DNA from: an uncultured Verrucomicrobiota bacterium | GTDB lineage: Bacteria; Verrucomicrobiota; Verrucomicrobiia; Palsa-1439 | Direction of reading: 5' to 3' | DNA: 64,000 nucleotides | Assembly: GCA_964566575.1 (NCBI GenBank) | Contig: CAZMKD010000147.1 | Location: 13,001-77,000 of the forward strand | Part shown: one piece after another, positions 8,405-30,901 of the stretch | How the letters are laid out: every line of letters begins with the position of its first letter | Position numbering within the stretch: the stretch's first letter is position 1 | Translations under genes and position numbers: made by a program | The notes under the pieces: model-generated | Seen by the model: only the letters and a program-made list of their open reading frames with translations | Told to the model about the DNA's origin: nothing | The model's database searches: none

Positions 8405-8471
8405 CGGCGAGGATAGCATGCGTTGAACAAGTTGGCTCGACAATTCGTCGGCGTGGTGAAAGATTATTTGC

Positions 8472-9350: not shown

Positions 9351-9365
9351 CGCGCATCCAATGGC

Positions 9366-16486: not shown

Positions 16487-16553
16487 ACCGGCCTGCCGTC
16501 TGCTCTACTCTGTGAATGGGCACCCGACGGGGGCGACCCACGGACGGAACATC

Positions 16554-18524
16554 ATGGACAAGCTGCAAGTGCTGACGAACGTCCCGCTGCTGGCCGGTCT
16601 CGGGGAAGAGTTGATGAAAGGGATGGCCGAGCGGGCGGGATTCGTCACGATTAAGAAGGGCGAACTGGTCTTTCGCGAGAACGATCCAGGGGATGCCCTC
16701 TATGCCGTCGTTACCGGCCGTCTGCAAGCCTACACCCGGCTCAGCAGCGGCCGCGAGCGTGTCTTCGCCACGTACTGCAATGGCGATTGTTTCGGTGAGA
16801 TGCCGCTGTTGTCCGGCGAAACACAATGGGCCAGCGTCCGCGCCCTCAACGACTCCGTCCTGTTGCGAATTCCCCGGGAAGACTTCGACGCCGTCGTCAA
16901 CCGCGATCCGCGCGTAGCCGTCGGCTTCACGCGTCGGCTCGCGCATCGTGTCAAGGAACTCCGTGCGGAAAAGAATCGCGCCAAGACCAGCAACATCATC
17001 GCGCTCTACAGCGCGGTGCCTGGTGCCGGCAAGACGCTACTGGCGACCAACCTTGTCGCCAGCCTCGCGCACGAAACGGCTGAGCCGGTCCTGTTGCTGG
17101 ATTTCAGCGGCCAGCAACGAGGCGAACCGTTGGCGGCCTGTGAGCGGATCGTCAGTCAGCCGAGCGCGCCATTGGACGGACTGGTGGTGCACACGCCGCT
17201 CGGCTACGACCGGCTCAATCTGACGATGCGGGGCGACGAACGCGAAGCTCCGTTGATCGCGCCACTGTTCGGCCGGTTGGTCAAACACTACGACTACGTG
17301 CTGGTCGATCTGCCGAACGAAGCGTCCGCGTCGACGATGGAATGTCTGCTGCAGGCCGATCAGGTTTACATCATTGCCCGGAGCGAAGAGGAACACCTGC
17401 ACCGGACCCGGTTGCTGTTGGACGACCTGCGTTCCCGCCGTCTTGGTGTCACGCCGAAGGCGCGCGTGATCCTCACTGCCGTCAGTGAAACCTGCGCGCC
17501 AACCGTCGAGGAATCGGAACGCAAGGTCGGTCAAGACATCAGTCATCTGCTGCGTTGGATACCGGAGACCGACATCATCGAGTCTGTGGACGGCGTGCCG
17601 TTCGTGTTGCGCCGTCCGATGGAAGCATACAGCCTCGTGGTGCGCCGCATGGCGCGCGAGCTGGGCAACGCGCTTGTCGGCCTCGCGCTCGGCACCGGCG
17701 CGGCACGCGGCTTGGGACACATCGGCGTCATCCGCGTTCTGGAGCGCGAGGGCTTGGCGGTGGACGTCGTGGCCGGCAGTTCGATGGGCGCGCTGGTCGG
17801 CGCAGCGTGGGCCGTCGGCAAATCGGCCGACGAGATGGAGCAGCTGGCGCTGCAGGTCAAGGGGCGACGAGCGTTCCTGCGATTGCTCGACCCGGTGTTC
17901 CCGGGATCGGGCTTCATCCGCGGCCTGAAAGTGCAGGAATTTCTGCACGGGATCGTGGACGAACTGACGTTTGCCGACACGCTCATCCCGCTCAAGATTA
18001 TCGCCAGCGATCTGAACACGATGGAAGAAATCGTCTTCGAGCACGGTCGGCTGCTCGATGCGATCCGCGCGAGCATTTCGATCCCCGGCGTCTTCCGTCC
18101 CGTCGCCAACAACGGCCACGTTCTCATCGACGGCGGCATCACCGACCCCGTGCCAGTCGACGTGCTGGTTCGTTCGGGGGTCACCAAGATCATCGCGGTC
18201 AACACCATCCCCAATGTGGACGAGATGAAACATCGGGCCTTGGTGCGCAGCGAGATGAAATCTGCGAAACGCGGCGAACCGGTTCGCGAAATCGGCCCGG
18301 TCGTCGAGACACCCACCAGCATCATCAACGTGTATATGCGCTCGATGCATGTAATGCAATCGCGCATGGCCGAGGAAGCCTGCACGCGCGCCGACGTGGT
18401 CCTGCGCCCGATTGTGGTTGGAGGCGTGTGGTACGATTTCTATCATCCCGAGAAGTATATTCGGGCGGGCGAACAAGCGGCCGAGGAAGCATTGCCGAAG
18501 TTGAAGGAGTTGATGCGCGCATGA
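16554..18524 (+). CDS. cyclic-nucleotide-binding domain / degenerate ParA-MinD-like domain / patatin-like phospholipase fusion protein
   Basis: A cNMP domain (GDCFGEMPLL), then IIALYSAVPGAGKTLLATNLV...YVLVDLP (a deviant P-loop), then patatin motifs GTGAARGLGHIGV, GSSMGA and DGG. The ORF opens at 16512 (GTG), but the start is placed at MDKLQ. Confidence 0.8.
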   Translation: MDKLQVLTNVPLLAGLGEELMKGMAERAGFVTIKKGELVFRENDPGDALYAVVTGRLQAYTRLSSGRERVFATYCNGDCFGEMPLLSGETQWASVRALNDSVLLRIPREDFDAVVNRDPRVAVGFTRRLAHRVKELRAEKNRAKTSNIIALYSAVPGAGKTLLATNLVASLAHETAEPVLLLDFSGQQRGEPLAACERIVSQPSAPLDGLVVHTPLGYDRLNLTMRGDEREAPLIAPLFGRLVKHYDYVLVDLPNEASASTMECLLQADQVYIIARSEEEHLHRTRLLLDDLRSRRLGVTPKARVILTAVSETCAPTVEESERKVGQDISHLLRWIPETDIIESVDGVPFVLRRPMEAYSLVVRRMARELGNALVGLALGTGAARGLGHIGVIRVLEREGLAVDVVAGSSMGALVGAAWAVGKSADEMEQLALQVKGRRAFLRLLDPVFPGSGFIRGLKVQEFLHGIVDELTFADTLIPLKIIASDLNTMEEIVFEHGRLLDAIRASISIPGVFRPVANNGHVLIDGGITDPVPVDVLVRSGVTKIIAVNTIPNVDEMKHRALVRSEMKSAKRGEPVREIGPVVETPTSIINVYMRSMHVMQSRMAEEACTRADVVLRPIVVGGVWYDFYHPEKYIRAGEQAAEEALPKLKELMRA

Positions 18525-18552
18525 AACTTAATTCTATTGTGGGAGCGTCGCG

Positions 18553-19986
18553 ATGAAATGGGATGAGATACCGGCGACCGAACAGCGCCGGCTACAAAAC
18601 GAGAAGCTGCACCGGTATCTCACCGAGGTCGTCGCGCCGTTCAGTCCGTACTACCGGAAGTTTGATCTCGGTAGGATCAAGACCGTCGAAGACCTCCGGC
18701 ATCTGCCGTTCACCACCAAAACCGATCTGCTGCCGACCTCTGAGCAGCCGGAAAAATTCCGCGAGTTCATCATCACGCCGGACATCACCGTACTCAAACA
18801 CCGGCCGCGCGTCATGGCCGAAGCCATGTTTCGCGGCCGGCGCGCCGTCGAGCGCCGGTTCGAGCGCGAGTACCGGCCGATCTTTCTCACCGCGACCACC
18901 GGTCGGAGTTCGTCCCCGGTCGCTTTCGCGTACACCGAGCATGACATGCACAATCTCCGCGAAACCGGCGCGCGACTGATCCAGACTTTTGGCTGCACCA
19001 CCAAGATGCGCGGGGTGAACATGTTTCCGTACGCGCCACATCTGGCTTTCTGGCAGGTCGTGTTTGCCGGGCTGGAGTTCGGGATGCTCATTCTCAGTAC
19101 CGGCGGCGGCAAAGTCATGGGCACGGACGGCAACATCCACGCGATCGAAAAGATCAAACCCGAAGCGCTCGCCGGCATCCCGACGTTCGTCTATCACGTC
19201 ATCCGTCAGGCCCACGAAGAAGGCCGGCGTTGGCCGCAAGTCAGCAAAATCATTCTCGGCGGCGAAAAATCTCCGCAAGGCATCCGGCGCAAGATTGTTA
19301 GTCTGTTGCAGGAAATGGGTGCCGGTGATGTCCGCGTCTGCAGCACGTATGGATTCACGGAGTCGCGCACCGCGTGGGGCGAATGCCCGCCGCCGCCCGG
19401 CGAATGGAGCGGCTATCATCTGTTCCCGGACCTCGGTATCTTCGAAGTCATTGACCCGATCACGAGCGAAGTGAAAGGGGAGGGAGAGCCGGGCGAGTTG
19501 GTTTACACGCCACTCGATGCGCGCGGCACCGTCGTGCTGCGTTACCGGACGGGCGACTATGTGGACGGCGGTCTCACGTGGGAACCGTGCCCGCATTGCG
19601 GCCGAACCGTGCCTCGCATCGTGGGCGGCATCGGTCGCGCGAGCAACACGAAAGAACTGCAGTTCGGGAAACTCAAGGGCACACTCGTCAACTTCGACAC
19701 CCTCCAACACATCCTCGACGACTCGTCCGATGTCAGCGAATGGCAACTCGAAATCCGCAAAGCCCATGACGATCCGCACGACGTGGACGAGCTTGTGCTA
19801 CACATCGCGCCCGACAACGGCGCAAACGTTGACCGCCTGAAGGACAAGATCCGGCAGCGCTTCCAGACAGAAGTCGAGGTCACGCCCAACCGCATCGAAG
19901 TTCATTCGCTCGATGATATGCTGCGCCGCATCAAGCTGGAAACCAGCCTCAAAGAAGTCCGTATTCTCGACGCCCGGCCGAAGTAA
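18553..19986 (+). CDS. phenylacetate-CoA ligase family (PaaK-like) adenylate-forming enzyme
   Basis: 477 aa. PaaK-like architecture with ...TTGRSSSPV..., YGFTES and GEPGELVYT. Confidence 0.8.
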   Translation: MKWDEIPATEQRRLQNEKLHRYLTEVVAPFSPYYRKFDLGRIKTVEDLRHLPFTTKTDLLPTSEQPEKFREFIITPDITVLKHRPRVMAEAMFRGRRAVERRFEREYRPIFLTATTGRSSSPVAFAYTEHDMHNLRETGARLIQTFGCTTKMRGVNMFPYAPHLAFWQVVFAGLEFGMLILSTGGGKVMGTDGNIHAIEKIKPEALAGIPTFVYHVIRQAHEEGRRWPQVSKIILGGEKSPQGIRRKIVSLLQEMGAGDVRVCSTYGFTESRTAWGECPPPPGEWSGYHLFPDLGIFEVIDPITSEVKGEGEPGELVYTPLDARGTVVLRYRTGDYVDGGLTWEPCPHCGRTVPRIVGGIGRASNTKELQFGKLKGTLVNFDTLQHILDDSSDVSEWQLEIRKAHDDPHDVDELVLHIAPDNGANVDRLKDKIRQRFQTEVEVTPNRIEVHSLDDMLRRIKLETSLKEVRILDARPK

Positions 19987-19992
19987 TTCGAT

Positions 19993-20053
19993 TGTGGGAG
20001 CGCCCTTCCGGGCGCGATTCCCCACCGGTCGCGCCCGGAAGGGCGCTCCTACA
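19993..20053. repeat. REPIN (inverted REP doublet) copy A
   Basis: TGTGGGAGCGCCCTTCCGGGCGCGA, a 12-nt spacer, then TCGCGCCCGGAAGGGCGCTCCTACA. Each arm contains the internal palindrome GCGCCC-TTCC-GGGCGC. Confidence 0.85.
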
Positions 20054-20075
20054 GAATCTCAACGGTATCTCTAGA

Positions 20076-20260
20076 TCAGCCGCGTTTATAGATTTCGCGG
20101 CGGTTGCCAACGTAGTGAAGGTAGAGGCGTCCTTGACTCACGTCGAATTCGTAGAGGATTCGATAATCTCCCACGCGCAGCTTGCATTCCGCACGACCAG
20201 TCAGGCGTTTGTGTGGATACCCCCAACGTAGCAAATGACCGGTGAGTTGCAACGTCTGTC
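20076..20260 (-). pseudogene. RelE/ParE-family toxin, N-terminally truncated remnant
   Basis: Hand translation gives LTGHLLRWGYPHKRLTGRAECKLRVGDYRILYEFDVSQGRLYLHYVGNRREIYKRG*, the conserved RelE/ParE C-terminal core. There is no start codon, about 30 aa are missing from the N-terminus, and no antitoxin gene is present. Confidence 0.6.
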
Positions 20261-20263
20261 TTT

Positions 20264-20323
20264 ATCAAGCTGGAGACGTCTCTGAAGGAAGTCCGCATCC
20301 TCGACGCCCGACCGAAGGCGTAG
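20264..20323 (+). pseudogene. displaced second copy of the last 19 codons of the PaaK-like gene
   Basis: Encodes IKLETSLKEVRILDARPKA*. This is the same peptide as 19930..19986, differing by 8 synonymous codon changes and no non-synonymous ones. Confidence 0.6.
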
Positions 20324-20382
20324 CGAGTCGGGCCAATACCAGTGGCCCTCAAGAACTGAAGCAAATGTCGGATGATATTAAA

Positions 20383-22950
20383 TCACGGGCCTAGCGGTTT
20401 GTTGTCCGGGCTGCCCTGGCCACTGCCCGGTGCGTCGTTTCCCTTCGGACTGCCCGGCGGCGCCGTGGCGATGACGTTGCGCGCCCCGTTAGAGCGTTTG
20501 CCGCAGTGCGATCTCGCCGCCTGGCTGACAATCTCGCCCTTCTGTTCCTCTGTAATCAGCCCGGCTGCCAGGAATTGGTTTGCGGCCTTGGCCACCCTCG
20601 ACACGTACTGACCGTGGTTTCTCCACGTCCCGCCAGCACGCGGTCCCGAGCACGGCACGAGTTGGTCAATGCTGCAGCCGTGGGTGTCAACGACCGCTCC
20701 CGCCACGGTGTTCGGGCATGAATCAAGGTCGTCACGCACTCCATCTCCGTCGCTGTCCGGGTTCTGGACTTCAAACGCGCCGATGTCGCTGCCGTCGCCG
20801 CCTGCGGCGTTGGCAATGGCGAGGAAGTTAACCGGCCGGGGGAAACCGCGCTGGTCGGTGGCCGCGCCGCTGAAGTTCTTGCCCTGATCAATAGCCGGGC
20901 TGCCGGGGAACAGCGCGTGTGTAAAGGTCGGGCCGCCGTTGTCCGCCAGCGGGCCGAGCAGTGGAGGAGTGTTGGTCTGGTCGCCGGTGTTGGTTAAGAA
21001 GCCGCCACCGTCATCGCTGCTCAGGTTGTAGCCGAGCGAGGTGACCGTGCCGTTTTGATTGCTGATGGTGCTGCCCGAAGCGCCAGCGTTTAGGATGGTG
21101 CTGCCGATTTCCAACGTCGCGCTGGTGCCGCCAAAATCTTCGTTGAAGATGCCGCCACATCCAACCTCGGCCGAGTTGCCGCTCACTGTGCTGTTGGCAA
21201 TCGTCAGCGTCCCGCCGGCGTTGTAGATGCCGCCGCCTTCACCTTGGCCTTCACCCTGGGCCGAGTTGCCGCTGAGGGTGCTGTTGGCGATCTGCACGGT
21301 CGCGCTGCTTTGAAAAGCTTCATTCAAGATGCCGCCGCCGAAGGTGGCCGAGTTGCCGCTGAGGGTGCTGTTGGCAATCGTCAGCGTCGCGCTGCCACCA
21401 TTGAAAGCTGCGTTGTAGATGCCGCCGCCTTCATACTGGGACGAGTTGCCGCTGAGGGTGCTGTTGCTAACCGTCAGCGTCGCGCTGCCATTGTTTCCGT
21501 CGTTCCAAATGCCGCCGCCGGAGACAGCCCTGTTGAGGCTCAGCGTGCTGTCGACAACCGTCAGGCTCGCGCTCCCGGTTCTACCGTCGTTGTAAATGCC
21601 GCCGCCGCCGTAGCCGGCCGAGTTGCCGCTCAGGGTGCTGTTGGCAATCGTCAGCATCCCGAAGTTGTCGATGCCGCCGCCGCTACCGGTGGCCGAGTTG
21701 CCAATGAGAGTGCAGTCGCTGACAGTCAGCGTCGCGTGGTCGTTGTAGATGCCGCCGCCCGCGTCGTCTGGGAAATTGAGGCCGGCAGTGTGACCGTTGG
21801 TAATCGTCAGGCTGGAGATGGTGACGGTTACGGCGTTCGTAATGTGAAACACGCGGCTGGCGGCGTTGCCGTCCACCGCCAGATTGCCGGGGCCGGGGCC
21901 GATGATGGTCACGCTTTTCGTGACGAGCAGTTCGCCGCTGGTCAGCAGAATGGTGCCGGAGACGCCGGTAGCATCAATGATGTCGCCGTCCGACGCACAC
22001 GCCAGTGCCGCGCGCAACGAGCCGGGGCCGCTGTCAGCGGTGGTCGTGACAAGGGGTGGAGAGCACGGAAACCAAAGAATCGCGTCGTTTTGGCCCGTGG
22101 AACTATTATACGCGTATCCAACGATGTTGCTATTGGCATCAACACCTTGCGCAAAGGAACTCGTGTAGTTCGACGAGAGGAAGCTGTGTAGGTCCACCGC
22201 GCTGGCTGCGGTGCCGGACCACAACAGTGCGTGGGGGTTGCCGCCCGCCATGGTTCCGTCGCCGACCTGCTGGCTACCGGAAAGGCCGAGGGCTTCCGAC
22301 ACAATGAATCCACTGGGGTTGAGGTCCACGGCGCTGACGGCCGTGCCGGACCATAACAGAGCGTGGACGTTGCCGCCCGTGCTGGGGCCGTATCCGTGGC
22401 CGACCTGCTGGCTACCGGAAATGCCGTTGGCGATCGAGTCAGTGAACCCGCTGGGGTGTAGGTCCACGGCGCTGGCCGCCGTGCCAGACCACAACAGCGC
22501 GTGATTGTTGAAGCCCGCCATGGTTCCGTTGCCGACCTGCTGGCTACCGGAAACGCCGAGGGCGTACGACCAACTGAACCCGCTGGGGTGTAGGTCCACG
22601 GCGCTGGCCGCTGTGCCAGACCACAACAGCGCATGGCTGTTGCCGCCCGTGCCGGGGCCGTATCCGTTGCCGACCTGCTGGCTGCCGGAAATGCCGCCGG
22701 CACCCGACTCAGTGAATCCGCTGGGGTTGAGGTCCACGGCGCTGGCCGCTGTGCCAGACCACAACAGCGCATGGCTGTTGCCGCCTGTGAGGCCGGAGCC
22801 GACCTGCTGGCTACCGGAAATGCCGAGGGCGGCCGAATCAATGAACCCGCTGGGGTTGAGGTCAATGAATGTGTACTGCGCTTCGACCGCCACGGGCACG
22901 GCCACAATCGCCAGCGCGAGCATCCAAATGGTTTGTTTTCTCGATTTCAT
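20383..22950 (-). CDS. secreted beta-propeller-like/right-handed beta-helix adhesin-like protein with thrombospondin-type-3 (calcium-binding) repeat
   Basis: 855 aa. Signal peptide, then about six units of 'HALLWSGTAASAVDLNPSGF..GISGSQQVGNG', then GGGIYN/ANSTLSGNSA parallel beta-helix repeats, then a DSDGDGVRDDLD calcium-binding repeat. Confidence 0.8.
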   Translation of the reverse strand: MKSRKQTIWMLALAIVAVPVAVEAQYTFIDLNPSGFIDSAALGISGSQQVGSGLTGGNSHALLWSGTAASAVDLNPSGFTESGAGGISGSQQVGNGYGPGTGGNSHALLWSGTAASAVDLHPSGFSWSYALGVSGSQQVGNGTMAGFNNHALLWSGTAASAVDLHPSGFTDSIANGISGSQQVGHGYGPSTGGNVHALLWSGTAVSAVDLNPSGFIVSEALGLSGSQQVGDGTMAGGNPHALLWSGTAASAVDLHSFLSSNYTSSFAQGVDANSNIVGYAYNSSTGQNDAILWFPCSPPLVTTTADSGPGSLRAALACASDGDIIDATGVSGTILLTSGELLVTKSVTIIGPGPGNLAVDGNAASRVFHITNAVTVTISSLTITNGHTAGLNFPDDAGGGIYNDHATLTVSDCTLIGNSATGSGGGIDNFGMLTIANSTLSGNSAGYGGGGIYNDGRTGSASLTVVDSTLSLNRAVSGGGIWNDGNNGSATLTVSNSTLSGNSSQYEGGGIYNAAFNGGSATLTIANSTLSGNSATFGGGILNEAFQSSATVQIANSTLSGNSAQGEGQGEGGGIYNAGGTLTIANSTVSGNSAEVGCGGIFNEDFGGTSATLEIGSTILNAGASGSTISNQNGTVTSLGYNLSSDDGGGFLTNTGDQTNTPPLLGPLADNGGPTFTHALFPGSPAIDQGKNFSGAATDQRGFPRPVNFLAIANAAGGDGSDIGAFEVQNPDSDGDGVRDDLDSCPNTVAGAVVDTHGCSIDQLVPCSGPRAGGTWRNHGQYVSRVAKAANQFLAAGLITEEQKGEIVSQAARSHCGKRSNGARNVIATAPPGSPKGNDAPGSGQGSPDNKPLGP
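22198..22870. repeat. about 126-144-bp tandem DNA repeats (5 units) inside the adhesin gene
   Basis: Near-identical units each begin GTCCACGGCGCTGGCCGC(T/C)GTGCCAGACCACAACAGCGC. They start at about 22198, 22325, 22463, 22589 and 22733. Confidence 0.7.
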
Positions 22951-23558
22951 ATTTGGCTCCCTACTTTCTTTCGGTCGTTGTTTACCGGATACTCGTCATG
23001 GCTGTGCTCCTGATCAGTTTCGTCTCATGGCACGATCCGAATGCGGCAGAACGTTGCCGGTTGCGTCGCGTGATCGTTCAAGGCACAACAGCGGCAGTGA
23101 TGGTGATGGCGATGAACGTTTCATGAGTTGACTCCTTGCAGGTGTGTGCGGAACCCGGTAAACCGGGGTCTGCGGGTTGATCCGAATCGGTCGAGCGAGG
23201 ACGCCGTGACGAGGAACTGTTCGCTCTCGCTGGTGAAGTCGTCTGCCGACGACAATGCACCCGCAAACGATCCGCCGGCACCGAGATGCGGTTGGAGGCG
23301 GGTCGATTGGGCTAAGCCCGAGTACGGTCCGTATGCCCAAGAGTTCATCTTTCCCTCGCCAGCCGACCAGAAAGCAGAAACGAGGTTTGACTTGCAAGCA
23401 AATAATTTGCTGGCGCGGGGGCAGGACCCGGTTCGTTACTACACGCTGAACTGGCGCTGAACCTGCGGTTGGCCACGGAGTAAAAGGATTTGCGTTGAAT
23501 CGCTCTCTCGCGTTGAGAGCGTCATGCGGTCGTGTTAGCCTGCCGTCGCGTGGAGCGG

Positions 23559-23771
23559 TTACCCGGCGACCGGGGCGGCATTCTTCAGTGCGGCTTCGAG
23601 CGCGTTGAGCAAGCGCTCCTTTTGACGAACCACAGATTGTTGCGCGTCGAGCTTCTTTTCCAACGTCAGCCCCGACTCGGCTTCGGTGAGCCGTAGGAGC
23701 CGGTCGCCGCCGACTAGCTTGATCAGGTCGATCTGGATTTTGCTGCGATCCATCATGACTCTATTCTCCAT
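23559..23771 (-). CDS. hypothetical small protein (about 70 aa), overlapping the upstream gene by 11 nt
   Basis: MENRVMMDRSKIQIDLIKLVGGDRLL.... Its ATG lies inside the stop region of the upstream gene, which suggests translational coupling. Confidence 0.4.
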   Translation of the reverse strand: MENRVMMDRSKIQIDLIKLVGGDRLLRLTEAESGLTLEKKLDAQQSVVRQKERLLNALEAALKNAAPVAG

Positions 23772-24153
23772 GAAAACCGTGGAATTGCAACAGTCGGTTG
23801 AGATTCTCCGGCGACGCATCGCCCCAGCGCGCTTGGGCGACCTTGGCGGCCCGTTCAAAATCGCCCTCGTTGAACTCCATCAGGCTGGAGGGCGGCAGCC
23901 AACTCGCCACGGTTGCGGCTTCCAGAATCTCGTGATACAGCGTCACGGATAATTCTTCTTCGCTCAGCCCGTGGCGGATCAGCAGGTGAAATTCGCGTCC
24001 CGTGAGCCGCGTCTGGGCGAGCGATTCGCGTCCCAAGGCATCCACGATTGGCTCGCGTGTGAACTCGACGGTTGCGACCACAAAGCCACCATGTAGCCGG
24101 AGGTTATTGAACGCGGCGTGGTCAATCATGGCGGGCTGCTTCTTACCCCGCCA
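23761..24153 (-). CDS. hypothetical protein (about 130 aa), first gene of an overlapping pair
   Basis: MIDHAAFNNLRLHGGFVVATVEF...LYHEILEAATVASW.... GC3 is high, so it looks coding. I do not recognise any family. The longer track ORF (to 24762) overlaps the convincing methyltransferase gene on the other strand and is rejected. Confidence 0.5.
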   Translation of the reverse strand, partial: WRGKKQPAMIDHAAFNNLRLHGGFVVATVEFTREPIVDALGRESLAQTRLTGREFHLLIRHGLSEEELSVTLYHEILEAATVASWLPPSSLMEFNEGDFERAAKVAQARWGDASPENLNRLLQFHGFHGE

Positions 24154-24234
24154 TGCGGACGAGGCCAAGCCTTTTCGGGTGGCGTCCCCACAATCCTTTT
24201 GCCGGTGGAGGTGGCCGCGTGTTAGCCTCCCGCC

Positions 24235-24984
24235 ATGCGCGAACTCAAGAGCTGGTATCAGGACGACAATTTCTGGAAAGTCGTCGAGCCGATCCTGTTC
24301 GGCGAGAAGCGCGTTGCCAACGCTGCGGCCGAAGTCGATCAACTCACCAACCTCCTCAAGCTGCAAACGCCGGCCAAAGTGCTCGACCTCTGTTGCGGCC
24401 TCGGCCGGCACAGCCTCGAATTCGCGCGGCGTGGTTTCGCCGTGACTGGTGTGGATCGCACCGGCGTTTACCTGCGCCGCGCCCAGAAGCAAGCCGACGC
24501 CGAAGGATTGAAAATCGAATTCGTGCAAGAGGACATGCGCCAGTTCTGCCGGCCCAACGCCTTCGACCTCACGCTGAACTTGTTCACCTCGTTCGGCTAC
24601 TTCGAAAGCCCGGCCGAGGACCGACGCGTCCTCGTCAACGTCCACAAATCCCTCAAGCCCGGGGGCCGGCTCGTCATGGACCTGATAGGCAAGGAAATCA
24701 TCGCCCGTATTTTCCGCGAACGCGACTGGCACGAAGAAGACGGCGTCATCTGGCTCGAACAACGCAGCATCAGCCAGGACTGGTCATGGATCGACAACCG
24801 CTGGATTCTATTGCGTGGCGACAGGCGCGACGAGTTCCGCGTCTCCCACCGCATCTACTCCGCCGCCGAACTGACCGGCCTGCTCAAGGATTGCGGCTTC
24901 AAGAAAGTTCAAACCCACGGTAGCTTTGCCGGCACGCCGTACGATCACGTCGCGGAACGGTTGGTAGTTGTAGCGCACAAGTAG
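24235..24984 (+). CDS. class I SAM-dependent methyltransferase
   Basis: VLDLCCGLGRHSLEFARRGFAVTGVD (motif I) followed by LKPGGRLVMD. Confidence 0.85.
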   Translation: MRELKSWYQDDNFWKVVEPILFGEKRVANAAAEVDQLTNLLKLQTPAKVLDLCCGLGRHSLEFARRGFAVTGVDRTGVYLRRAQKQADAEGLKIEFVQEDMRQFCRPNAFDLTLNLFTSFGYFESPAEDRRVLVNVHKSLKPGGRLVMDLIGKEIIARIFRERDWHEEDGVIWLEQRSISQDWSWIDNRWILLRGDRRDEFRVSHRIYSAAELTGLLKDCGFKKVQTHGSFAGTPYDHVAERLVVVAHK

Positions 24985-24992
24985 TACCGGAT

Positions 24993-25075
24993 TGTAGGAG
25001 CGCCCTTCCGGGCGCGACCGGGTGGAGTGCTGATTCCATCCCCACAGCCCTCGCGCCCGGAAGGGCGCTCCCACA
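24993..25075. repeat. REPIN copy B
   Basis: TGTAGGAGCGCCCTTCCGGGCGCGA, a 33-nt spacer, then TCGCGCCCGGAAGGGCGCTCCCACA. It starts 9 nt after the methyltransferase stop. Confidence 0.85.
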
Positions 25076-25135
25076 ACCAGAGCCGGCACAGACGCCGCAT
25101 TGCAGGGATGCCGGCCGCATGTTACTCTGGCTCGC

Positions 25136-26374
25136 ATGACGCGACTGGCCATCATCGACGGGGTGCGGACGCCGTTCTGCAAAGCCGGAACGGACCTCAA
25201 AGCATTGCCGGCGCAAGACCTCGGCCGCATCGTCGTCAGCGAAGTGCTGGAACGCACGAGCTTCAAGCCCGGTAAGGTCTCGCAAGTCATCTTCGGCTGC
25301 GTCGCGCAACCGGCGGAAGCCGCCAACATCGCACGCGTCATCGCCCTCAACGCCGGCATCCCGCACGAAGTTCCCGCGTACACCGTGCATCGCAATTGCG
25401 CGAGCGGCTTCGAGGCGATCACCAGCGCGTATGAGAAAATGGTGGCCGGGCAGGGTGATGTGTTTGTCGTCGGCGGCACCGAAAGCATGTCGAACATCCC
25501 GCTGCTGTATTCGACCGCCGCTGCCGAGAAGTTCGCCGCGCTCGCAAAGGCGAAGAGCTTGCCGGACAAGGTCCGCGCCGCTCTCGGTTTTCGGCCATCG
25601 GACTTCCGTCCTCGCATCGGCATCATGCTCGGTCTCACCGATCCAACTTGCGGCCTCAACATGGGGCAAACGGCAGAGGTTCTTTACCGGGATTTCGGCA
25701 TCAGCCGGGAAGACCAGGACCGGTTCGCGCTCGATTCGCACTTGAAAGCAGCAAAAGCGCGGGCGAAGTTGCACGAAGAGATTACCACTGTTTATTTGCC
25801 GCGCGGGAAGTTCACGCAAGACGACAACGGCGTTCGCGAGAATCAGACGATGGAGGCGCTGGCGAAGCTAAAGCCAGTCTTCGCGAAGCACAACGGCACC
25901 GTAACAGCCGGCAATTCCTCGCAACTCACCGACGGCGCCGTCGCGTTGCTGGTGATGAGCGAAGACAAAGCACGCGAGTTGAAGTTGGATCCGCTCGGTT
26001 ATCTTCGCAGCTACGCGTATGCCGGTTGTGAGCCGCAGCGTATGGGGCTTGGCCCGGCCTACGCGATTCCGGAGGCACTCGAAGCGGCGCGCGTCCGGTG
26101 GGACGAGATCCAACTGATCGAAATCAACGAAGCGTTCGCCGTGCAAGTGCTCGCCGTCGAAACGTTCCTGCGCAAGCAATCCGGTTTGACCATCAACCGC
26201 GACCTGCTCAACGTCAACGGCGGCGCGATCGCGCTCGGTCACCCGGTCGGTGCGAGCGGTGCACGGCTCGTATTGACTCTGCTGAAGGAAATGAAGCGCC
26301 GAAACCTGAAGACCGGTCTGGCCTCGGCTTGTGTCGGCGGCGGGCAGGGGGCGGCGTTGGTTGTGGAGAGATGA
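25136..26374 (+). CDS. fadA: acetyl-CoA C-acyltransferase (thiolase, FadA-like)
   Basis: NRNCASGFEAI (the active-site Cys region) and the C-terminal GGAIALGHPVGASGARL and CVGGGQG. Confidence 0.9.
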   Translation: MTRLAIIDGVRTPFCKAGTDLKALPAQDLGRIVVSEVLERTSFKPGKVSQVIFGCVAQPAEAANIARVIALNAGIPHEVPAYTVHRNCASGFEAITSAYEKMVAGQGDVFVVGGTESMSNIPLLYSTAAAEKFAALAKAKSLPDKVRAALGFRPSDFRPRIGIMLGLTDPTCGLNMGQTAEVLYRDFGISREDQDRFALDSHLKAAKARAKLHEEITTVYLPRGKFTQDDNGVRENQTMEALAKLKPVFAKHNGTVTAGNSSQLTDGAVALLVMSEDKARELKLDPLGYLRSYAYAGCEPQRMGLGPAYAIPEALEAARVRWDEIQLIEINEAFAVQVLAVETFLRKQSGLTINRDLLNVNGGAIALGHPVGASGARLVLTLLKEMKRRNLKTGLASACVGGGQGAALVVER

Positions 26375-26394
26375 ACGAGGCAAGGAACAGCAAT

Positions 26395-26469
26395 TGTGGG
26401 AGCACCCTTCCGGGCGCGATTCCGGCCGCATCGCCACAAACCGGTCGCGCCCGGAAGGGCGCTCCCACA
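26395..26469. repeat. REPIN copy C
   Basis: TGTGGGAGCACCCTTCCGGGCGCGA, a spacer, then TCGCGCCCGGAAGGGCGCTCCCACA. Confidence 0.85.
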
Positions 26470-26721
26470 ACAACATCGAAGCCGCAACTGCCGCATTCTT
26501 CCGCCCTGCGCAAAGGCCGCTGGTCATGGCCGAATCATTGTTACTTCGTCACGACCAATGCAGCGGATATGAAGCCGATGTTCGCACACAAAGAGGCAGC
26601 CCATGTCGTCATCGAGTCACTGGTCTGGCTTCAGCAGGAGGGGCGAATCAGGCTAATGGGATTTGTCGTCATGCCGGATCATGTGCATCTGGCGTTTGTG
26701 TTGTGCGATGCGCGCGACCGG

Positions 26722-26793
26722 TCGCGCGCAGAAGCGCGCTCCCACAATCAGAAGGACAAGGCTGCCATTGTGGGAGCGCCCTTCCGGGCGCGA
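26722..26793. repeat. REP arms (one variant arm plus one canonical arm) inserted in frame inside the RAYT coding sequence
   Basis: TCGCGCGCAGAAGCGCGCTCCCACA ... TGTGGGAGCGCCCTTCCGGGCGCGA. It translates as ...CDARDRSRAEARSHNQKDKAAIVGAPFRARSG... between the HVHL motif and the SFKGYTGKKIN segment. Confidence 0.8.
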
Positions 26794-27064
26794 TCTGGAT
26801 TGTCGGTGGTGATGAATTCATTCAAAGGCTACACCGGCAAGAAGATCAACGAGTTGCTCGGCCGGCATGGGGACGTGTGGCAACCGGCCTACTACGAGCA
26901 TCTGGTCCGAGACGAAAAGGACTTTCGCGCACGGCTCGATTACATGCACGCCAATCCGATTCGCAAAGGGCTGGCGCAATTCGAGGTGGACTGCGAATTC
27001 TCGAGCGCGAATCCGAAGTGTGCGCATTTGGTCGATTGGAACTGGCTATTTGGCGTTGAGCCGG

Positions 27065-27089
27065 TCGCGCCCGGAAGGGCGCTCCCACA
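27065..27089. repeat. single REP arm abutting the fadB start codon
   Basis: TCGCGCCCGGAAGGGCGCTCCCACA is followed immediately by the ATG at 27090. Confidence 0.8.
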
Positions 27090-29039
27090 ATGAAGGGCAA
27101 GTCGATCAATCTCGAACGGGATGCTGACGGCATCGCGTGGGTGGTGTTCGATGACCCGAACGCCAAGGTCAACGTTTTCAACTCCGGCAACGTCGCGTTG
27201 CTGGACCGGATTCTCGACGAACTGGCGCAGCAGAAACCGAAGCGTGTCGTCTTCATCAGCGGCAAGCCGGACACCTTCATTGCCGGGGCGGACATTAAAG
27301 AGTTGGAGAAAATTCGCGACGACGCGCACGGCGAGGAACTATCGAGGGCTGGTCACAAGATTTTCGCCAAGATCGAGAACCTCGGCGTCTCGACGGTGGC
27401 GGCGATAGATGGCGCGTGCCTCGGCGGCGGCTGCGAGTTAGCGCTGGCGTGCAGCGCCCGGGTGGCGACTGACAATCCGAAGACACAGATTGGGCTGCCG
27501 GAAACGCAACTTGGCATAATTCCCGGCTGGGGCGGCACACAGCGGTTGCCGGGATTGATCGGATTGCGTGCGGCGCTGGAGATCATCGTGCCCGGCAAGA
27601 CGCTGGATGCTGCGCGCGCCTTGAAGGTCGGACTTGTGGACGCCGTCGTGCCCAAAGTTGCGTTGCGAGAGGCTGCGGTGAAAACAATTTGTAGGAGCGC
27701 CCTTCCGGGCGCGACCGGCCGGAGTCGCGCGCAGAAGCGCGCTCCCACATTGCCGGACTTTATCGTGCGTGCGATTGCTCGCAAGCAAACCCTGGCGAAA
27801 ACCCACGGTCATTATCCGGCGCCGTTGAAGGCGATCGAAATTGCCGGGCGCGGGTTCGAGGCGGAGGCGCGGGCGTTCGGCGAAGTGTCGGCAACATCGC
27901 AGTGCAAGAACCTGATTCGGGTTTTCTTTCTACGCGAGAAATACTCGAAGCTGCGGTTGCCGGGCGGCGAGAGAGCGAAGAAGATTGAGAAGGTCGGCGT
28001 GCTTGGCGCCGGCACGATGGGCGCCGGCATCGCGATGTGGTGCAGCGCGCGCGGCTTGACGGTGCGGTTGAAGGACATCAAGCCGGAGTTTGTTGCGGTC
28101 GGCATGAAACGCATCGAGGACGCTTACCGGGATGGGGTAAAGCGGCGCAAAATTACCGAGTTGCAGATGCAGCAAGGCATGGCGCGCGTGCATCCGACTA
28201 CCGAGTACACGGGCTTCGGTGATTGCAACATCGTCATCGAGGCGGTGCTGGAGAAGATCGAGATCAAGCGGCCGGTCTTCAGCGAACTCACGCCACTGCT
28301 CCGGCCAGACTGTGTTATCGCGTCGAACACCTCGGCGATTCCGATCGATGATCTGGCGGCAGCGACGGGACGGCCGGAGAAGTTTGTCGGGATTCACTTT
28401 TTCAATCCCGTTCACAAGATGCCACTGGTGGAAGTGGTGCGCGGCACAAAGACGTCGCCGGAAGTCGTCGCCGCAGCCGTTGAGTTTGCGAAGCAGCTCA
28501 AGAAGATACCGGTGGTCGTCAAAGGCGCGCCGGGGTTCTTGGTGAACCGGTTGTTGATGCCGTACCTGAACGAAGCCGGCGTCATATTGGGCGAAGGCGT
28601 GGGCGTGGAAGCGTTGGACAAGGCAATGGTGGATTTTGGCTGGCCGATGGGGCCGGCACGGTTGATTGACGAAATCGGCATTGACGTGACGCTGGATGTG
28701 GCACGCGAGTTGGCCGAGGCGTTTCGTGGCCGGATGATTGTCGCGCCAATTCTCCGGCAAGTGCACGAGCAGGGCTTGAAAGGGCGCAAGGGTGGGGCAG
28801 GGTTTTACATCGGGGACCGGCCGAACCCGGCCGTCAAACTTCCCGGCGGCAAGAGCCTGAGCGCCGACGAGATTCAGAAGCGGTTGATGAACGCGATGGT
28901 GGCGGAAGCCAAGTTATGCTTGAAGGAGGGGATTGTCGCGGCGGAGGACGACATTGATGTGGCGCTGATTTTCGGTACCGGCTTCCCGCCGTTTCGTGGT
29001 GGGCTGGTGAAATGGGCGCGCGATACGGAGGTGTGGTGA
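27090..29039 (+). CDS. fadB: fatty-acid oxidation complex alpha subunit-like (enoyl-CoA hydratase + 3-hydroxyacyl-CoA dehydrogenase), FadB/FadJ-like
   Basis: Crotonase fold (AAIDGACLGGGCELAL) and an NAD-binding domain (VGVLGAGTMGAGIA), 649 aa in total. Confidence 0.9.
   Translation: MKGKSINLERDADGIAWVVFDDPNAKVNVFNSGNVALLDRILDELAQQKPKRVVFISGKPDTFIAGADIKELEKIRDDAHGEELSRAGHKIFAKIENLGVSTVAAIDGACLGGGCELALACSARVATDNPKTQIGLPETQLGIIPGWGGTQRLPGLIGLRAALEIIVPGKTLDAARALKVGLVDAVVPKVALREAAVKTICRSALPGATGRSRAQKRAPTLPDFIVRAIARKQTLAKTHGHYPAPLKAIEIAGRGFEAEARAFGEVSATSQCKNLIRVFFLREKYSKLRLPGGERAKKIEKVGVLGAGTMGAGIAMWCSARGLTVRLKDIKPEFVAVGMKRIEDAYRDGVKRRKITELQMQQGMARVHPTTEYTGFGDCNIVIEAVLEKIEIKRPVFSELTPLLRPDCVIASNTSAIPIDDLAAATGRPEKFVGIHFFNPVHKMPLVEVVRGTKTSPEVVAAAVEFAKQLKKIPVVVKGAPGFLVNRLLMPYLNEAGVILGEGVGVEALDKAMVDFGWPMGPARLIDEIGIDVTLDVARELAEAFRGRMIVAPILRQVHEQGLKGRKGGAGFYIGDRPNPAVKLPGGKSLSADEIQKRLMNAMVAEAKLCLKEGIVAAEDDIDVALIFGTGFPPFRGGLVKWARDTEVW
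27690..27749. repeat. REPIN copy inserted in frame inside the fadB-like CDS
   Basis: TGTAGGAGCGCCCTTCCGGGCGCGA, then CCGGCCGGAG, then TCGCGCGCAGAAGCGCGCTCCCACA. It translates as ...TICRSALPGATGRSRAQKRAPTL... in the linker between the hydratase and dehydrogenase domains. Confidence 0.8.
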
Positions 29040-29584
29040 TGGGGTTTGAATTCCAAGAGGGCGATTCGCTGACCGGGCAGGTGCTCGCGGCAGCGCCGGA
29101 TCTGCTCGACCCGAATTTTCACAAGACGGTCGTCTACATCGTCGAGCATGCCGCAACCGGTGCGCTGGGGTTCGTGATGAATCGGCCGCTGGGCAAGAAA
29201 CTGAGCGAGATCACGAAGGAGCTGGACTTGCCGGTGGCGTTGAAAAACCTGCCCGTGTTCGAAGGCGGGCCGGTGAAGCCGAACAGCCTGTTGTTTGCGT
29301 GCTTCAAGCGCGGAGGCAACGACGAGGAAGTCGTGTGTGAAATTGTGGCCGATCCCACGGAGATGAAAACCGGCGGATGCGTTCGGGCGTTCGCCGGCTA
29401 TACAGGCTGGGCAGAAGGGCAGTTGGAGCGTGAGTTGACGGAGCAAACGTGGAAGATCTGTCCCCCGCACGTGGCCCTGCTCGAAGAGCCGGTCCCGCCG
29501 GCGTTGTGGCCGGCATTCGTCAGCGATGACCAGCGGTGGCGGAAGCTGCAGTCGTTGTTGCCGAAAGATACGGGGCAGAACTGA
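29039..29584 (+). CDS. YqgE/AlgH family protein (UPF0301)
   Basis: ...DPNFHKTVVYIVEH...GALGFVMNRP..., the DUF179 signature. It has an ATGA overlap with the fadB stop. Confidence 0.75.
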   Translation: MGFEFQEGDSLTGQVLAAAPDLLDPNFHKTVVYIVEHAATGALGFVMNRPLGKKLSEITKELDLPVALKNLPVFEGGPVKPNSLLFACFKRGGNDEEVVCEIVADPTEMKTGGCVRAFAGYTGWAEGQLERELTEQTWKICPPHVALLEEPVPPALWPAFVSDDQRWRKLQSLLPKDTGQN

Positions 29585-29616
29585 ATTGTGGTCGCGCCCG
29601 GAAGGGCGCTCCTACA
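29585..29616. repeat. degenerate REPIN (left arm reduced to ATTGTGG, intact right arm)
   Basis: ATTGTGG + TCGCGCCCGGAAGGGCGCTCCTACA. The TAG stop codon of tadA (29612..29614, minus strand) lies within the right arm. Confidence 0.75.
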
Positions 29617-30079
29617 GGCGTCTGACGCGGAAGAAATCCTGCAGAAGTTGCCGCGCTTCGGCTTCTTTCACACCGGCGTTGACGGTGACCGTGTGGTTGA
29701 GTCCGCCCTGCCCGGTAATGTCGAAGATTGAACCGGCCCCGCCGCTCTTCGGATCGGCCACGCCGTAGACGAGTCGCTGCACCCGCGCCAGCACAGTCGC
29801 GCCGGCGCACATCGGGCACGGCTCTTTGGTAACGAAGAGCGTCGAGCCGTCAAGCCGCCAATCGCCGACGGCCTGCGCCGCTTGGGTGATGGCGAGAACT
29901 TCGGCGTGGGCCGTGGCGTCTTTCAGCAGTTCGACCTGATTGAACGCGCGCGCGATGATTTTGCCGTCGCGGGCAATGACTGCGCCGACCGGGACTTCTT
30001 CGGCGTCGAACGCCATCCGCGCTTGTCGGAGCGCTTCGCCCATAAAGTAATCGTCACTGGTGAGCTCGATTTCGGACAT
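29612..30079 (-). CDS. tadA: tRNA-specific adenosine deaminase
   Basis: HAEVLAI and PCPMCAGA, the CDA zinc motifs. The start is assigned at MSEIELTSDDYFMGEAL. Confidence 0.85.
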   Translation of the reverse strand: MSEIELTSDDYFMGEALRQARMAFDAEEVPVGAVIARDGKIIARAFNQVELLKDATAHAEVLAITQAAQAVGDWRLDGSTLFVTKEPCPMCAGATVLARVQRLVYGVADPKSGGAGSIFDITGQGGLNHTVTVNAGVKEAEARQLLQDFFRVRRL

Positions 30080-30115
30080 TTGCCGGATGCTAGCCGGTCG
30101 GCTAGGATTCGACAA

Positions 30116-30901
30116 GTGAGCAAGATCGCGGACATTTCGACGGGACGTACACGGCTGCGGGTGACCGGTGCCGACCGAGCGGAGTTCCTGCACGGGCAGT
30201 GCACGAACAGCATCAAGAAGCTCCGGCCGGGCCAGAGTTGCTACGCGGCGTTTCTCAACGCGAAGGGAAAGATGCGGGGTGATGCGCACGTCGTTTGTCG
30301 GCCAGAGGAGTTCTTGTTGGAGGCGAGCGTCGGGCTGCAAGCATCACTGGAGAAGTTTGTCATTACGGAGGACGTGGTGATCGAAGACGTCAGCGCGTCG
30401 CTGGGCGCGTGGCTGGTGATCGATGAATCGCCGGGCGGCATTACATTCGAGCATCCGCTTGGGACGGGCGTGTTGAGCGCCGAGCCGCTGCCGGTCAAGG
30501 TGGATGCCGGAGCGCTGGAGGTGTTGCGAGTGGAGGCCGGTGTTCCCGCTTGGGGCGTGGATATGGATGAGGAAACCATTCCCGTCGAGGCCGGTTTGGC
30601 GGCACGGGCGATTTCGTACGACAAAGGCTGTTACATCGGCCAAGAGACGATCGCGCGGATCAAGACGTACGGCCATGTGAACCGACATCTGGTGCAGTTG
30701 GTCGGGGAAAGCGAGACCGGGCCGGGCGCGAGCCTGTCGGTCGGCGAGCGGGAGGCGGGGCGGTTGACCAGCGTGGTGCGCTCGAACCGGCTTGGCAAAT
30801 TCATCGCGCTGGGATACGTTCGGCGTGAGTGCGCCAAAGCGGGAACGGTCCTGCAGGCGGGCGAACAATCATGGGAGATCATCAAGTTATGTGGCGAATG
30901 A
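30116..30901 (+). CDS. folate-binding YgfZ/GcvT-family protein
   Basis: Aminomethyltransferase-like fold (...GCYIGQETIARIKTYGHVNR...). A probable GTG start was chosen so that the gene does not overlap tadA. Confidence 0.7.
   Translation: MSKIADISTGRTRLRVTGADRAEFLHGQCTNSIKKLRPGQSCYAAFLNAKGKMRGDAHVVCRPEEFLLEASVGLQASLEKFVITEDVVIEDVSASLGAWLVIDESPGGITFEHPLGTGVLSAEPLPVKVDAGALEVLRVEAGVPAWGVDMDEETIPVEAGLAARAISYDKGCYIGQETIARIKTYGHVNRHLVQLVGESETGPGASLSVGEREAGRLTSVVRSNRLGKFIALGYVRRECAKAGTVLQAGEQSWEIIKLCGE

Follow-up and report, generated by a model that had tools for sequence, protein, structure and literature searches.

A probable REPtron in a fadA-fadB gene cluster of an uncultured Verrucomicrobiota bacterium, with repeat hairpins inside its reading frames

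Repetitive extragenic palindromic (REP) sequences and their REP-associated tyrosine transposases (RAYTs) are among the commonest repeat systems of bacteria, and the manner in which such repeats persist and co-evolve with a single-copy transposase is debated. The current study concerns a REP family and its RAYT gene in a stretch of 64,000 nucleotides (hereafter the window, to which all positions refer unless a relative is named) from an uncultured Verrucomicrobiota bacterium (GenBank assembly GCA_964566575.1, contig CAZMKD010000147.1, positions 13,001 to 77,000 of the forward strand). We consider it probable, at approximately 85%, that this locus is a REPtron, composed of one RAYT gene (26371–27093) encoding an HUH/Y1 single-strand DNA endonuclease and of its cognate REP hairpins in a fadA-fadB operon. 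The system is thus of a known kind; its anatomy, a RAYT gene set into an operon and holding hairpins at three in-frame sites, accompanied by a further set in fadB and conserved across a clade, is unusual and, as far as we could find, apparently undescribed.

By repeat design the closest described systems are the REPtrons of Pseudomonas and Xanthomonas ('group 3'). Nunvar et al. 2010 (PMC2817692) listed the Pseudomonas putida REP TGTGGGAGCGGGCgTGCCCGCGAA and the Xanthomonas campestris REP GTAGGAGCGCGCTCGCGCGCGA, and noted that a GA separating the palindrome from its GT(A/G)G head is peculiar to the Pseudomonas/Xanthomonas RAYT clade. Group 3 REPs are short perfect palindromes, and those of Marinomonas are concentrated near tnpA (Corneloup et al. 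2021, PMC8266576). The repeats of the window follow the same plan, with T-GT(A/G)G, GA, a short perfect GC-rich palindrome, a loop of 2–4 nt and a CGA tail, and the comparison of their head with known RAYT groups, which the original prediction had proposed, accordingly places the GT(A/G)G-GA design with the Pseudomonas/Xanthomonas class (PMC2817692). Also in common are the bracketing of the RAYT gene by its own REPs and the presence of inverted REP doublets (REPINs). The host phylum is different, the nearest matches to the window being metagenome-assembled genomes (MAGs) of Verrucomicrobiota, as is the anatomy of the locus, since the RAYT gene of the window is nested in an operon with overlapping starts and stops and has REPs within its own frame. 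Of the 1473 relatives of the RAYT from a profile search, the 120 listed include no Pseudomonas or Xanthomonas names, organism names being almost absent from the listing.

The Escherichia coli transposase TnpAREP (4ER8), with its REP sequences and bacterial interspersed mosaic elements (BIMEs), is the only system with biochemistry on the recognition and cleavage of a hairpin plus GTAG (PMC3479197). It is the best profile and fold match of the window's RAYT, and the HUH motif, the tyrosine and N119 are conserved between the two. In contrast to the repeats described here, the REPs of E. coli form long, bulged and imperfect palindromes whose GTAG lies directly against the stem; the E. coli gene is devoid of a REP-coded insert and its loop after the HUH motif is short, while H123 of the E. 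coli protein is a lysine in the RAYT of the window.

Within the same phylum, Opitutus terrae (Verrucomicrobia) carries GTAG/GTGG REPs, many of which are intragenic and in frame (Di Nocera et al. 2013, PMC3733652), and the heads are mostly GTGG, as in the window. That study describes in-frame REPs and REP dimers encoding 20–30 residues, GTAG heads that supply TAG stop codons, and REPs that overlap the 5' or 3' ends of RAYT genes, all of which have parallels here. Its table of intragenic REPs holds no transposase (PMC3733652), whereas the host genes in the window are the RAYT gene itself and fadB. Another difference from the Opitutus repeats is that the copies in the window are positionally conserved across diverged genomes.

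Classic palindromic elements of Rickettsia (RPE-1) are approximately 100–150 bp in length and, to our knowledge, possess neither a dedicated transposase nor a GTAG-type head, while the repeats of the window are 25-nt units with a cognate RAYT. Both represent palindromic repeats lying in frame within genes that are likely still functional (PMC3733652). With the IS200/IS605 insertion sequences (IS) the locus shares the Y1 HUH transposase fold and a gene flanked by hairpins (PMC6006769), but in the window it is the repeats and not the gene that are multi-copy, and the single gene is syntenic and vertically inherited. An IS200/IS605 element was rejected, as the window holds one such gene, at a position that is syntenic in relatives, and not several near-identical copies at unrelated sites.

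The repeat family and its transposase

A search of the whole window with the pattern TGTGGGAGCGCCCTTCCGGGCGCGA, allowing up to three mismatches, returned 12 matches, as compared to none in any of 100 dinucleotide-preserving shuffles. All 12 arms lie between positions 19993 and 29616 and group into seven loci, as had been foreseen in the original prediction of about 12 arms at seven loci in roughly 10 kb, and neither a looser core pattern nor a scan of the 64 kb for heads alone or generic GTRG hairpins gave a further intact copy. A REP reads T-GT(G/A)G-GA, followed by a 6-bp GC stem whose two strands enclose a loop of 4 nt, and closes with GA. Five of the seven loci are pairs, with spacers of 10, 11, 22, 25 and 33 nt, which agrees with the earlier description of the repeats as mostly inverted doublets; four of the pairs have their heads outside (REPINs), one has its heads inside, and the other two loci are single arms on the minus strand.

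The first REPIN (19993–20053; plus arm 19993–20017, minus arm 20029–20053, heads outside, spacer 11) begins 6 nt past the stop codon of an AMP-binding enzyme gene (18553–19986) and folds with −35.7 kcal/mol (z −9.4). The second (24993–25075; plus arm 24993–25017, minus arm 25051–25075, heads outside, spacer 33; −37.3 kcal/mol) sits between the stop codon of a methyltransferase gene (24984) and the ATG of a fadA-like thiolase gene (25136). The boundary after a methyltransferase stop, with which the prediction opened its list, belongs to the second locus, whereas the first follows the AMP-binding gene. A third REPIN (26395–26469; plus arm 26395–26419, minus arm 26445–26469, heads outside, spacer 25), the heads-inside or tail-tail pair (26722–26793; minus arm 26722–26746, plus arm 26769–26793, spacer 22) and a single minus-strand arm (27065–27089) are associated with the RAYT gene. 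The fourth REPIN (27690–27749; plus arm 27690–27714, minus variant arm 27725–27749, heads outside, spacer 10) is located in fadB, and a single minus-strand arm (29592–29616) lies between the stop codon of an AlgH-like gene (29584) and tadA.

The hairpin GCGCCC-TTCC-GGGCGC had been ascribed to every arm. It is perfect in nine of the 12; the arm at 26395 has one stem mismatch (GCACCC) and those at 26722 and 27725 carry the compensated variant GCGCGC-TTCT-GCGCGC. Folding of single arms gives the 6-bp GC stem and 4-nt loop with −8.4 to −9.5 kcal/mol, and for the long hairpins into which the heads-outside pairs fold the energies are −22.6 to −37.6 kcal/mol, with z from −4.3 to −10. Two remnants were also observed. 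In the intergenic gap between the patatin and AMP-binding genes, TGTGGGAGCG joined to TCGCGA (18539–18554, plus strand) represents a REP from which the hairpin has been deleted, and the equivalent gap of L187 holds an intact REP at its positions 1033–1056 (here and below, L-numbers denote DNA loci from relatives and P-numbers homologous proteins). A truncated plus-arm head, ATTGTGG (29586–29592), is fused to the minus arm at 29592–29616. To judge from their sequences, these remnants suggest that deletions within REPs and REPINs happen. No regular array is present in the window, and a tandem array or a reading akin to clustered regularly interspaced short palindromic repeats (CRISPR) was rejected.

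Selection on the hairpin was assessed from all 25-mers in the fetched DNA, chosen by their head (TGTRGGAG) and tail (CGA) alone. The set comprises 87 distinct sequences with diverse stems, of which 56 have a perfect 6-bp stem and 28 have five of the six pairs. Paired stem cells amount to 94.8%, compared to 66.9% in shuffles (0 of 500 shuffles as high), and cells that differ from the commonest pair on both sides number 132, as opposed to 38.7 in shuffles; such double changes are present in five of the six stem pairs. When the partner was slid by 1–3 columns as a control, pairing was 21–48%. This covariation indicates that the REP hairpin is under selection and is maintained by compensatory substitutions.

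The transposase was identified from profiles, alignment and structural modelling. The intact open reading frame (ORF) scores 106.7 bits against NCBIfam NF047646 (REP-associated tyrosine transposase, equivalog; cut-off 80), rising to 119.3 bits once the internal REP-coded segment is removed, and the first PDB match of a profile of 32 homologues is E. coli TnpAREP (4ER8; E = 4.9e-20). The active-site residues of the latter, H59/H61, Y115 and N119, are named in the structure paper (PMC3479197). In a proper alignment the HUH and tyrosine residues are present: H104 and H106 of the DHVHL motif align to H59 and H61, with H104 invariant and H106 nearly invariant among homologues, and Y191 (in LDYMHANP) and N195 align to Y115 and N119, with Y191, N195 and P196 invariant. 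The prediction had thus named the HUH motif correctly, but the catalytic tyrosine is Y191 and the YYEH proposed for this role aligns to F-W of the E. coli protein. An AlphaFold (AF2) model has a predicted local distance difference test score (pLDDT) above 90 for residues ~50–112 and ~143–225, and Foldseek returns 4er8_A as the top PDB match of this model, although identity in the structural alignment to E. coli TnpAREP is only ~21%. The gene is the only RAYT gene in the window and is bracketed by REPs (26395–26469 and 27065–27089), likewise in L034, L078 and L186–L194. Taken together, alignment and model indicate that ORF 26371–27093 is a genuine RAYT with an intact active site, and with 12 arms against none by chance, the NCBIfam score and the 4ER8 match, the prediction of a REP/REPIN family and its RAYT was borne out.

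Repeats inside reading frames and their age

The RAYT gene (plus strand, 240 codons) runs from an ATG at 26371 to a TGA at 27091–27093. Its start overlaps the stop codon TGA (26372–26374) of the fadA-like thiolase gene (25136–26374, plus strand; Pfam Thiolase_N/C) as ATGA, and its stop overlaps the ATG of fadB (27090), again as ATGA, so that a 4-base overlap exists at both ends. The thiolase ATG at 25136 was set by the reading frame and a 412-residue orthologue in L186. The downstream gene (27090–29039, plus strand) is a fadB/fadJ-like enoyl-CoA hydratase/3-hydroxyacyl-CoA dehydrogenase gene (Pfam ECH_1, 3HCDH_N and 3HCDH, with PDB matches to FadJ/FadB).

Seven of the 12 arms are translated, five in the RAYT ORF and two in fadB. 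The REPIN at 26395–26469 encodes RAYT residues 9–33 at the N-terminus, and homologues P0001, P0002, P0004 and P0007 possess the same N-terminal extension of the SALPGA...GRARKGAPT type. The heads-inside pair at 26722–26793 encodes residues 118–141, a loop directly after the HUH strand, and the arm at 27065–27089 encodes the last nine residues (VAPGRALPQ), its head abutting the fadB ATG at 27090. In the AF2 model these REP-coded segments have a pLDDT of ~45–55, with the internal pair at ~50, and form loops outside the fold. In fadB, the REPIN at 27690–27749 is in frame and encodes residues 201–220 (CRSALPGATGRSRAQKRAPT), part of the linker that joins the hydratase domain to the dehydrogenase domain. 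This linker equals that of E. coli FadJ in length, and a simple net insertion was therefore rejected; the repeat would instead occupy or replace a variable linker segment. Reading of all six frames shows the repeat with a GTGG head to be free of stop codons, while that with a GTAG head contains one, a TAG confined to one frame.

The loci had been placed at gene boundaries, which holds for some of them, but the copies at RAYT codons 118–141 and fadB codons 201–220 are internal to genes and another three arms fall within the RAYT ORF at its two ends. Similarly, peptides of the GAPFRAR and SALPGAT type do occur in antisense ORFs as artefacts of the repeat, as was proposed, but the same peptides are real in the RAYT and FadB frames. 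With seven of 12 arms inside reading frames the repeats are not confined to the extragenic locations from which REPs take their name. Since intragenic REPs have been documented in other genomes (PMC3733652), this is a departure from the name and not from the family.

The age of the embedded copies was examined in seven aligned orthologous loci (the window, L034, L078, L186, L187, L188 and L189) and in further relatives. A minus arm followed by a plus arm occurs at the same internal site and in the same frames as in the window in L034, L186, L187, L188, L189, L191 and L192, and L078 retains only the minus arm of this pair. The C-terminal minus arm is found in all seven aligned loci and also in L191, L192 and L194. 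In the window, L186, L187 and L191 the first internal arm has the GCGCGC variant. In L188 and L189 all three positions use the stem GCGGCC-TCCC-GGCCGC, and in L191 the internal arms are of type 1 and the C-terminal arm is type-2-like; a rule by which internal and flanking repeats switch type together thus holds in L188/L189, fails in L191 and was not retained. The minus arm in fadB is at the same site in every orthologue examined (L186, L187, L189, L078 and, in degenerate form, L188), and its stem changes are often compensated, as in GCGGCA-TTCC-TGCCGC of L189. Only the loci at 19993, 24993 and 29592 look lineage-specific, being without counterparts in L186–L189, where nothing corresponds to the REPIN of 19993 at that position.

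In the repeat-free core of the RAYT gene, the seven orthologues differ at 0.12–0.29 of nonsynonymous sites (pN) and 0.66–0.87 of synonymous sites (pS); the latter are saturated, and the ratio of nonsynonymous to synonymous substitution rates (dN/dS), where correctable, is 0.04–0.24. These values indicate that the RAYT core is under purifying selection. Among the five orthologues with type-1 repeats, mean pairwise identity of the core is 75.5%, 83.5% and 47.0% at the first, second and third codon positions, respectively, while that of the arms is 93% (C-terminal), 86% (first internal) and 96% (second internal). A rough neighbour-joining tree of the core places the insert of 14–45 residues in one clade only, some members of which are without one or both arms, and the outgroups all have a loop of 4–5 residues. 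These comparisons indicate that the embedded copies are old, that they are orthologous across relatives and that they are conserved above coding constraint.

Mechanism and alternative explanations

By analogy with E. coli TnpAREP, the RAYT would bind the hairpin and its 5' GTRG head on single-stranded DNA, and would cut and rejoin beside the hairpin, thereby moving, spreading and homogenising the REPs. As stop codons are almost absent from the repeat, copies landing in loops or linkers would be tolerated where they add a length divisible by three, and tolerated copies would persist as disordered surface segments such as those at the RAYT N-terminus, in the loop after the HUH strand, at the C-terminus and in the FadB linker. 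The anatomy of the locus suggests that translation of the RAYT is probably coupled to that of fadA and fadB through the ATGA overlaps, and that a hairpin directly after the start codon would keep expression low. The embedded copies are kept REP-like in nucleotide sequence, which might be due either to selection on the hairpin or its binding site or to ongoing conversion by other members of the repeat family.

Several observations weigh against this interpretation of the locus as a REPtron. The remaining ~54 kb of the window contains no match to the search pattern at up to three mismatches. The intact ORF scores 22.2 bits against Pfam Y1_Tnp (PF01797), below the threshold of 23; the REP-coded insert splits the domain, and the score is 33.0 bits after its removal. 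The E. coli metal ligand H123 is replaced by lysine in the profile alignment. We infer translation through the N-terminal REPIN from ATG 26371 on the basis of the homologues carrying the same extension and of the fact that no in-frame ATG, GTG or TTG is found from this REPIN to the conserved N-terminal strand. Finally, the seven arms within reading frames are ancient positional orthologues and are therefore silent on current mobility.

The REPs inside the RAYT gene might be a functional part of the system, the gene carrying its own recognition hairpins in frame either as an autoregulatory site (on single-stranded DNA or mRNA) or as protected 'master copies', which would tie the inheritance and evolution of enzyme and repeat together and could re-seed the repeat population. 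The arms are more conserved than any codon position, they retain perfect hairpins, and their occurrence spans a clade and two operon contexts (fad and opp-like), all of which is compatible with such a role, but the repeated loss of arms in some lineages argues against an essential one, and we regard this proposal as distinctly improbable. Somewhat less improbable, though still unlikely, is an explanation that overlaps with the REPtron interpretation, whereby the hairpins owe their retention chiefly to a function for the host or in cis regulation, rather than to being mobile DNA (mRNA stability, coupling of fadA-RAYT-fadB translation, or RAYT autoregulation on its own gene or transcript) and the RAYT is a domesticated partner. 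It would account for the REP arms being the most conserved nucleotides of the RAYT gene (86–96%, against 47% at third codon positions), for arm positions and orientations that are fixed across relatives with saturated synonymous sites, for the ATGA overlaps at both RAYT ends in many loci, for a hairpin inside the first ~12 codons in several lineages and for compensated stem changes even within coding sequence. Concerted evolution of a mobile repeat population would, however, give equal conservation, and the ORF stays intact where arms have been lost (with none in P0011, P0020 and P0025, and one in P0003/5/23 and P0004/9/10). Scans with promoter and terminator consensus sequences found no enrichment, and Rfam at gathering thresholds gave no match. 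At the other extreme, the RAYT as a decaying pseudogene invaded and inactivated by its own repeats is largely refuted and can be given next to no credence: three repeat-derived segments do interrupt or extend the ORF, which is sub-threshold for Y1_Tnp when intact, but all 240 codons are open with every insert in frame, the catalytic residues are intact, dN/dS is 0.04–0.24 in comparison with orthologues that have the same inserts, the core is modelled with pLDDT >90 and the inserts as loops, and the NCBIfam equivalog threshold is passed.

Two further explanations, which concern the history of the repeats, appear possible but doubtful. The internal RAYT pair may mark a hot spot that REPs re-entered repeatedly and independently, as opposed to one ancient insertion. 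Arm content varies among close relatives (none, minus only, plus only, both or more), and in the distant RAYT P0055 (44% identical) the same loop holds a pair of a different repeat type with a GCGACA stem, deduced from the peptides SRQECRSHE and CGSGIPVAT, the plus arm being in another frame; the differing types of the internal and C-terminal arms of L191 point the same way. Against this stand the uniformity of the main clade in site, orientation and frames (SRPEGRSHN-type, then VGAPFRAR-type), the first-arm GCGCGC variant common to the window, L186, L187 and L191, and the neighbour-joining tree, rough as it is, which maps the insert to one clade with scattered losses. The cluster may also be the product of recent local amplification, or 'local hopping', out of the RAYT locus, an idea put forward in the original prediction. 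The three lineage-specific loci, at 19993, 24993 and 29592, all lie within 8 kb of the RAYT in a window of which the other ~54 kb is REP-free; a rough estimate of the probability that three uniformly placed loci would all be so close is ~0.02, and a clustering of REPs around tnpA has been reported for Marinomonas (PMC8266576). Three loci are nevertheless a very small sample, seven of the 12 arms are old orthologous copies, relatives carry only a few additional REPs, or none, within 6 kb of their RAYT genes, and among relatives the family is spread over many contigs. As most of the near arms are old, the RAYT gene as the origin of amplification is weakly supported.

If the locus is indeed a REPtron of the kind proposed, it extends the Pseudomonas/Xanthomonas type of repeat design to the Verrucomicrobiota and, by the exact 24-mer described below, to MAGs of Desulfuromonadota and Proteobacteria. 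A RAYT stitched into metabolic operons fits a domesticated, vertically inherited gene. The locus also constitutes a natural experiment, in which the substrate sequence of an enzyme lies within its own gene and within fadB and is conserved in nucleotide sequence while the synonymous sites around it saturate. Structural constraint on the DNA or RNA can thereby be told apart from constraint on the protein, and autoregulation, gene conversion and the degree to which proteins tolerate loops encoded by repeats become open to testing. Should the embedded copies be passive passengers, the locus would be an ordinary REPtron with a curious anatomy. A limited search of the literature yielded no mention of REPs in the frame of a RAYT gene.

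Relatives, neighbouring genes and minor observations

Among the representative genomes of GTDB, exact copies of the 24-mer GTRGGAGCGCCCTTCCGGGCGCGA are present in at least 105 blocks of 8 kb. In related genomes they are spread across many contigs, which supports the REPtron interpretation. Individual Verrucomicrobiota MAGs hold, for example, at least 20, at least nine, at least seven and at least six such blocks, one unclassified MAG at least 12 and Geomesophilobacter sediminis at least 19, and the matches listed also include MAGs of Gammaproteobacteria and Pseudomonadota and one WOR-3 contig. The best DNA identity to the window among loci carrying the 24-mer is 72–75%. Horizontal transfer need not be invoked for an identical 24-mer across phyla, as convergence within a constrained design is sufficient: only ~3 stem positions and the loop are free once the head, the GA, GCG...CGC and the tail are fixed, and the RAYT of Geomesophilobacter is just 27% identical to that of the window and is flanked mainly by a GCGACA-stem variant. 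This RAYT (161 residues; L012, positions 1–860) has TGTAGGAGCGACATTCCTGTCGCGA repeats on its flanks and one GCGCCC-type copy 60 nt beyond them; repeats that share the design but differ in stem are therefore found side by side in a single genome from a different phylum.

A protein search with the RAYT found ~25 close clusters of 51–79% identity, the closest protein being 79% identical, and many distant ones; all of the matches listed in a metagenome scan with the RAYT alignment are distant (≤44% identity). The window's order of patatin/AMP-binding genes, then thiolase-RAYT-fadB-tadA, recurs in L186 and L187, and L078 has the same adjacency of RAYT and fadB. In L188, L189/L190, L191 and L194 the RAYT gene is immediately upstream of the thiolase gene in the same neighbourhood. 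A related RAYT lineage is situated between the two ATPase genes of an oligopeptide-type ATP-binding cassette (ABC) transporter operon, with 4-base overlaps with both neighbours (L192, 412–1071; L193, 6001–6588; L195, 6001–6516), and the internal REP pair is present in L192 and absent from L193 and L195. Overlaps of four bases with both neighbours are found in most of the relative loci. Because synteny is kept across relatives with saturated synonymous sites, the gene order indicates that the RAYT locus is vertically inherited and not IS-like.

Some of the relatives presented further features. The fadB gene of L188 is called as two ORFs (hydratase 7901–8641, dehydrogenase 8592–9890), split beside the degenerate linker REP, which from the sequence would be either a frameshift or a real split. 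A tandem array of 4.9 copies of a 106-bp unit is present in L050, from a Pseudomonadota MAG (6227–6745), the unit pairing a GCGCCC-type arm with a GCGGGC-TTCT-GCCCGC arm in a BIME-like manner, and L074, from Geomesophilobacter sediminis, has 2.5 copies of a 162-bp unit (1416–1823); both arrays contain the REP found in the window and are tandem duplications of whole units. In the metagenome proteins P0056 (356 residues) and P0055 (212 residues) the RAYT frame continues from the C-terminal end of the upstream gene, which in P0056 encodes a class-I/II aminotransferase domain (PF00155), and these two may represent a further case of a RAYT gene nested in an operon or fused to its neighbour.

The genes around the cluster were assigned by Pfam. 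Upstream of the thiolase gene they comprise a patatin/cyclic nucleotide monophosphate-binding gene (16512–18524), the AMP-binding enzyme gene (18553–19986), a gene for a large repeat protein (20383–22950, minus strand) and the methyltransferase gene (24235–24984), and downstream of fadB the AlgH-like gene (29012–29584) and a tadA-type deaminase gene (29612–30340, minus strand). The stop codon of the latter (TAG, 29612–29614, minus strand) lies in the GTAG head of the REP at 29592–29616. The last ~57 bases of the AMP-binding gene (19930–19986) recur ~330 bp downstream (20263–20320) with ~85% identity, and between these duplicates lie the first REPIN and a C-terminal fragment of a ParE/RelE-type toxin gene (20076–20218, minus strand; Pfam ParE_toxin 19.9 bits, under the cut-off of 23). 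From its sequence it looks as though the 3' end of the AMP-binding gene has been replaced by an incoming segment, the old end being left as a remnant. Elsewhere in the window, the 2-kb bin at 8001–10000 has an AT skew of 0.22, which is unusually high in comparison with the rest.

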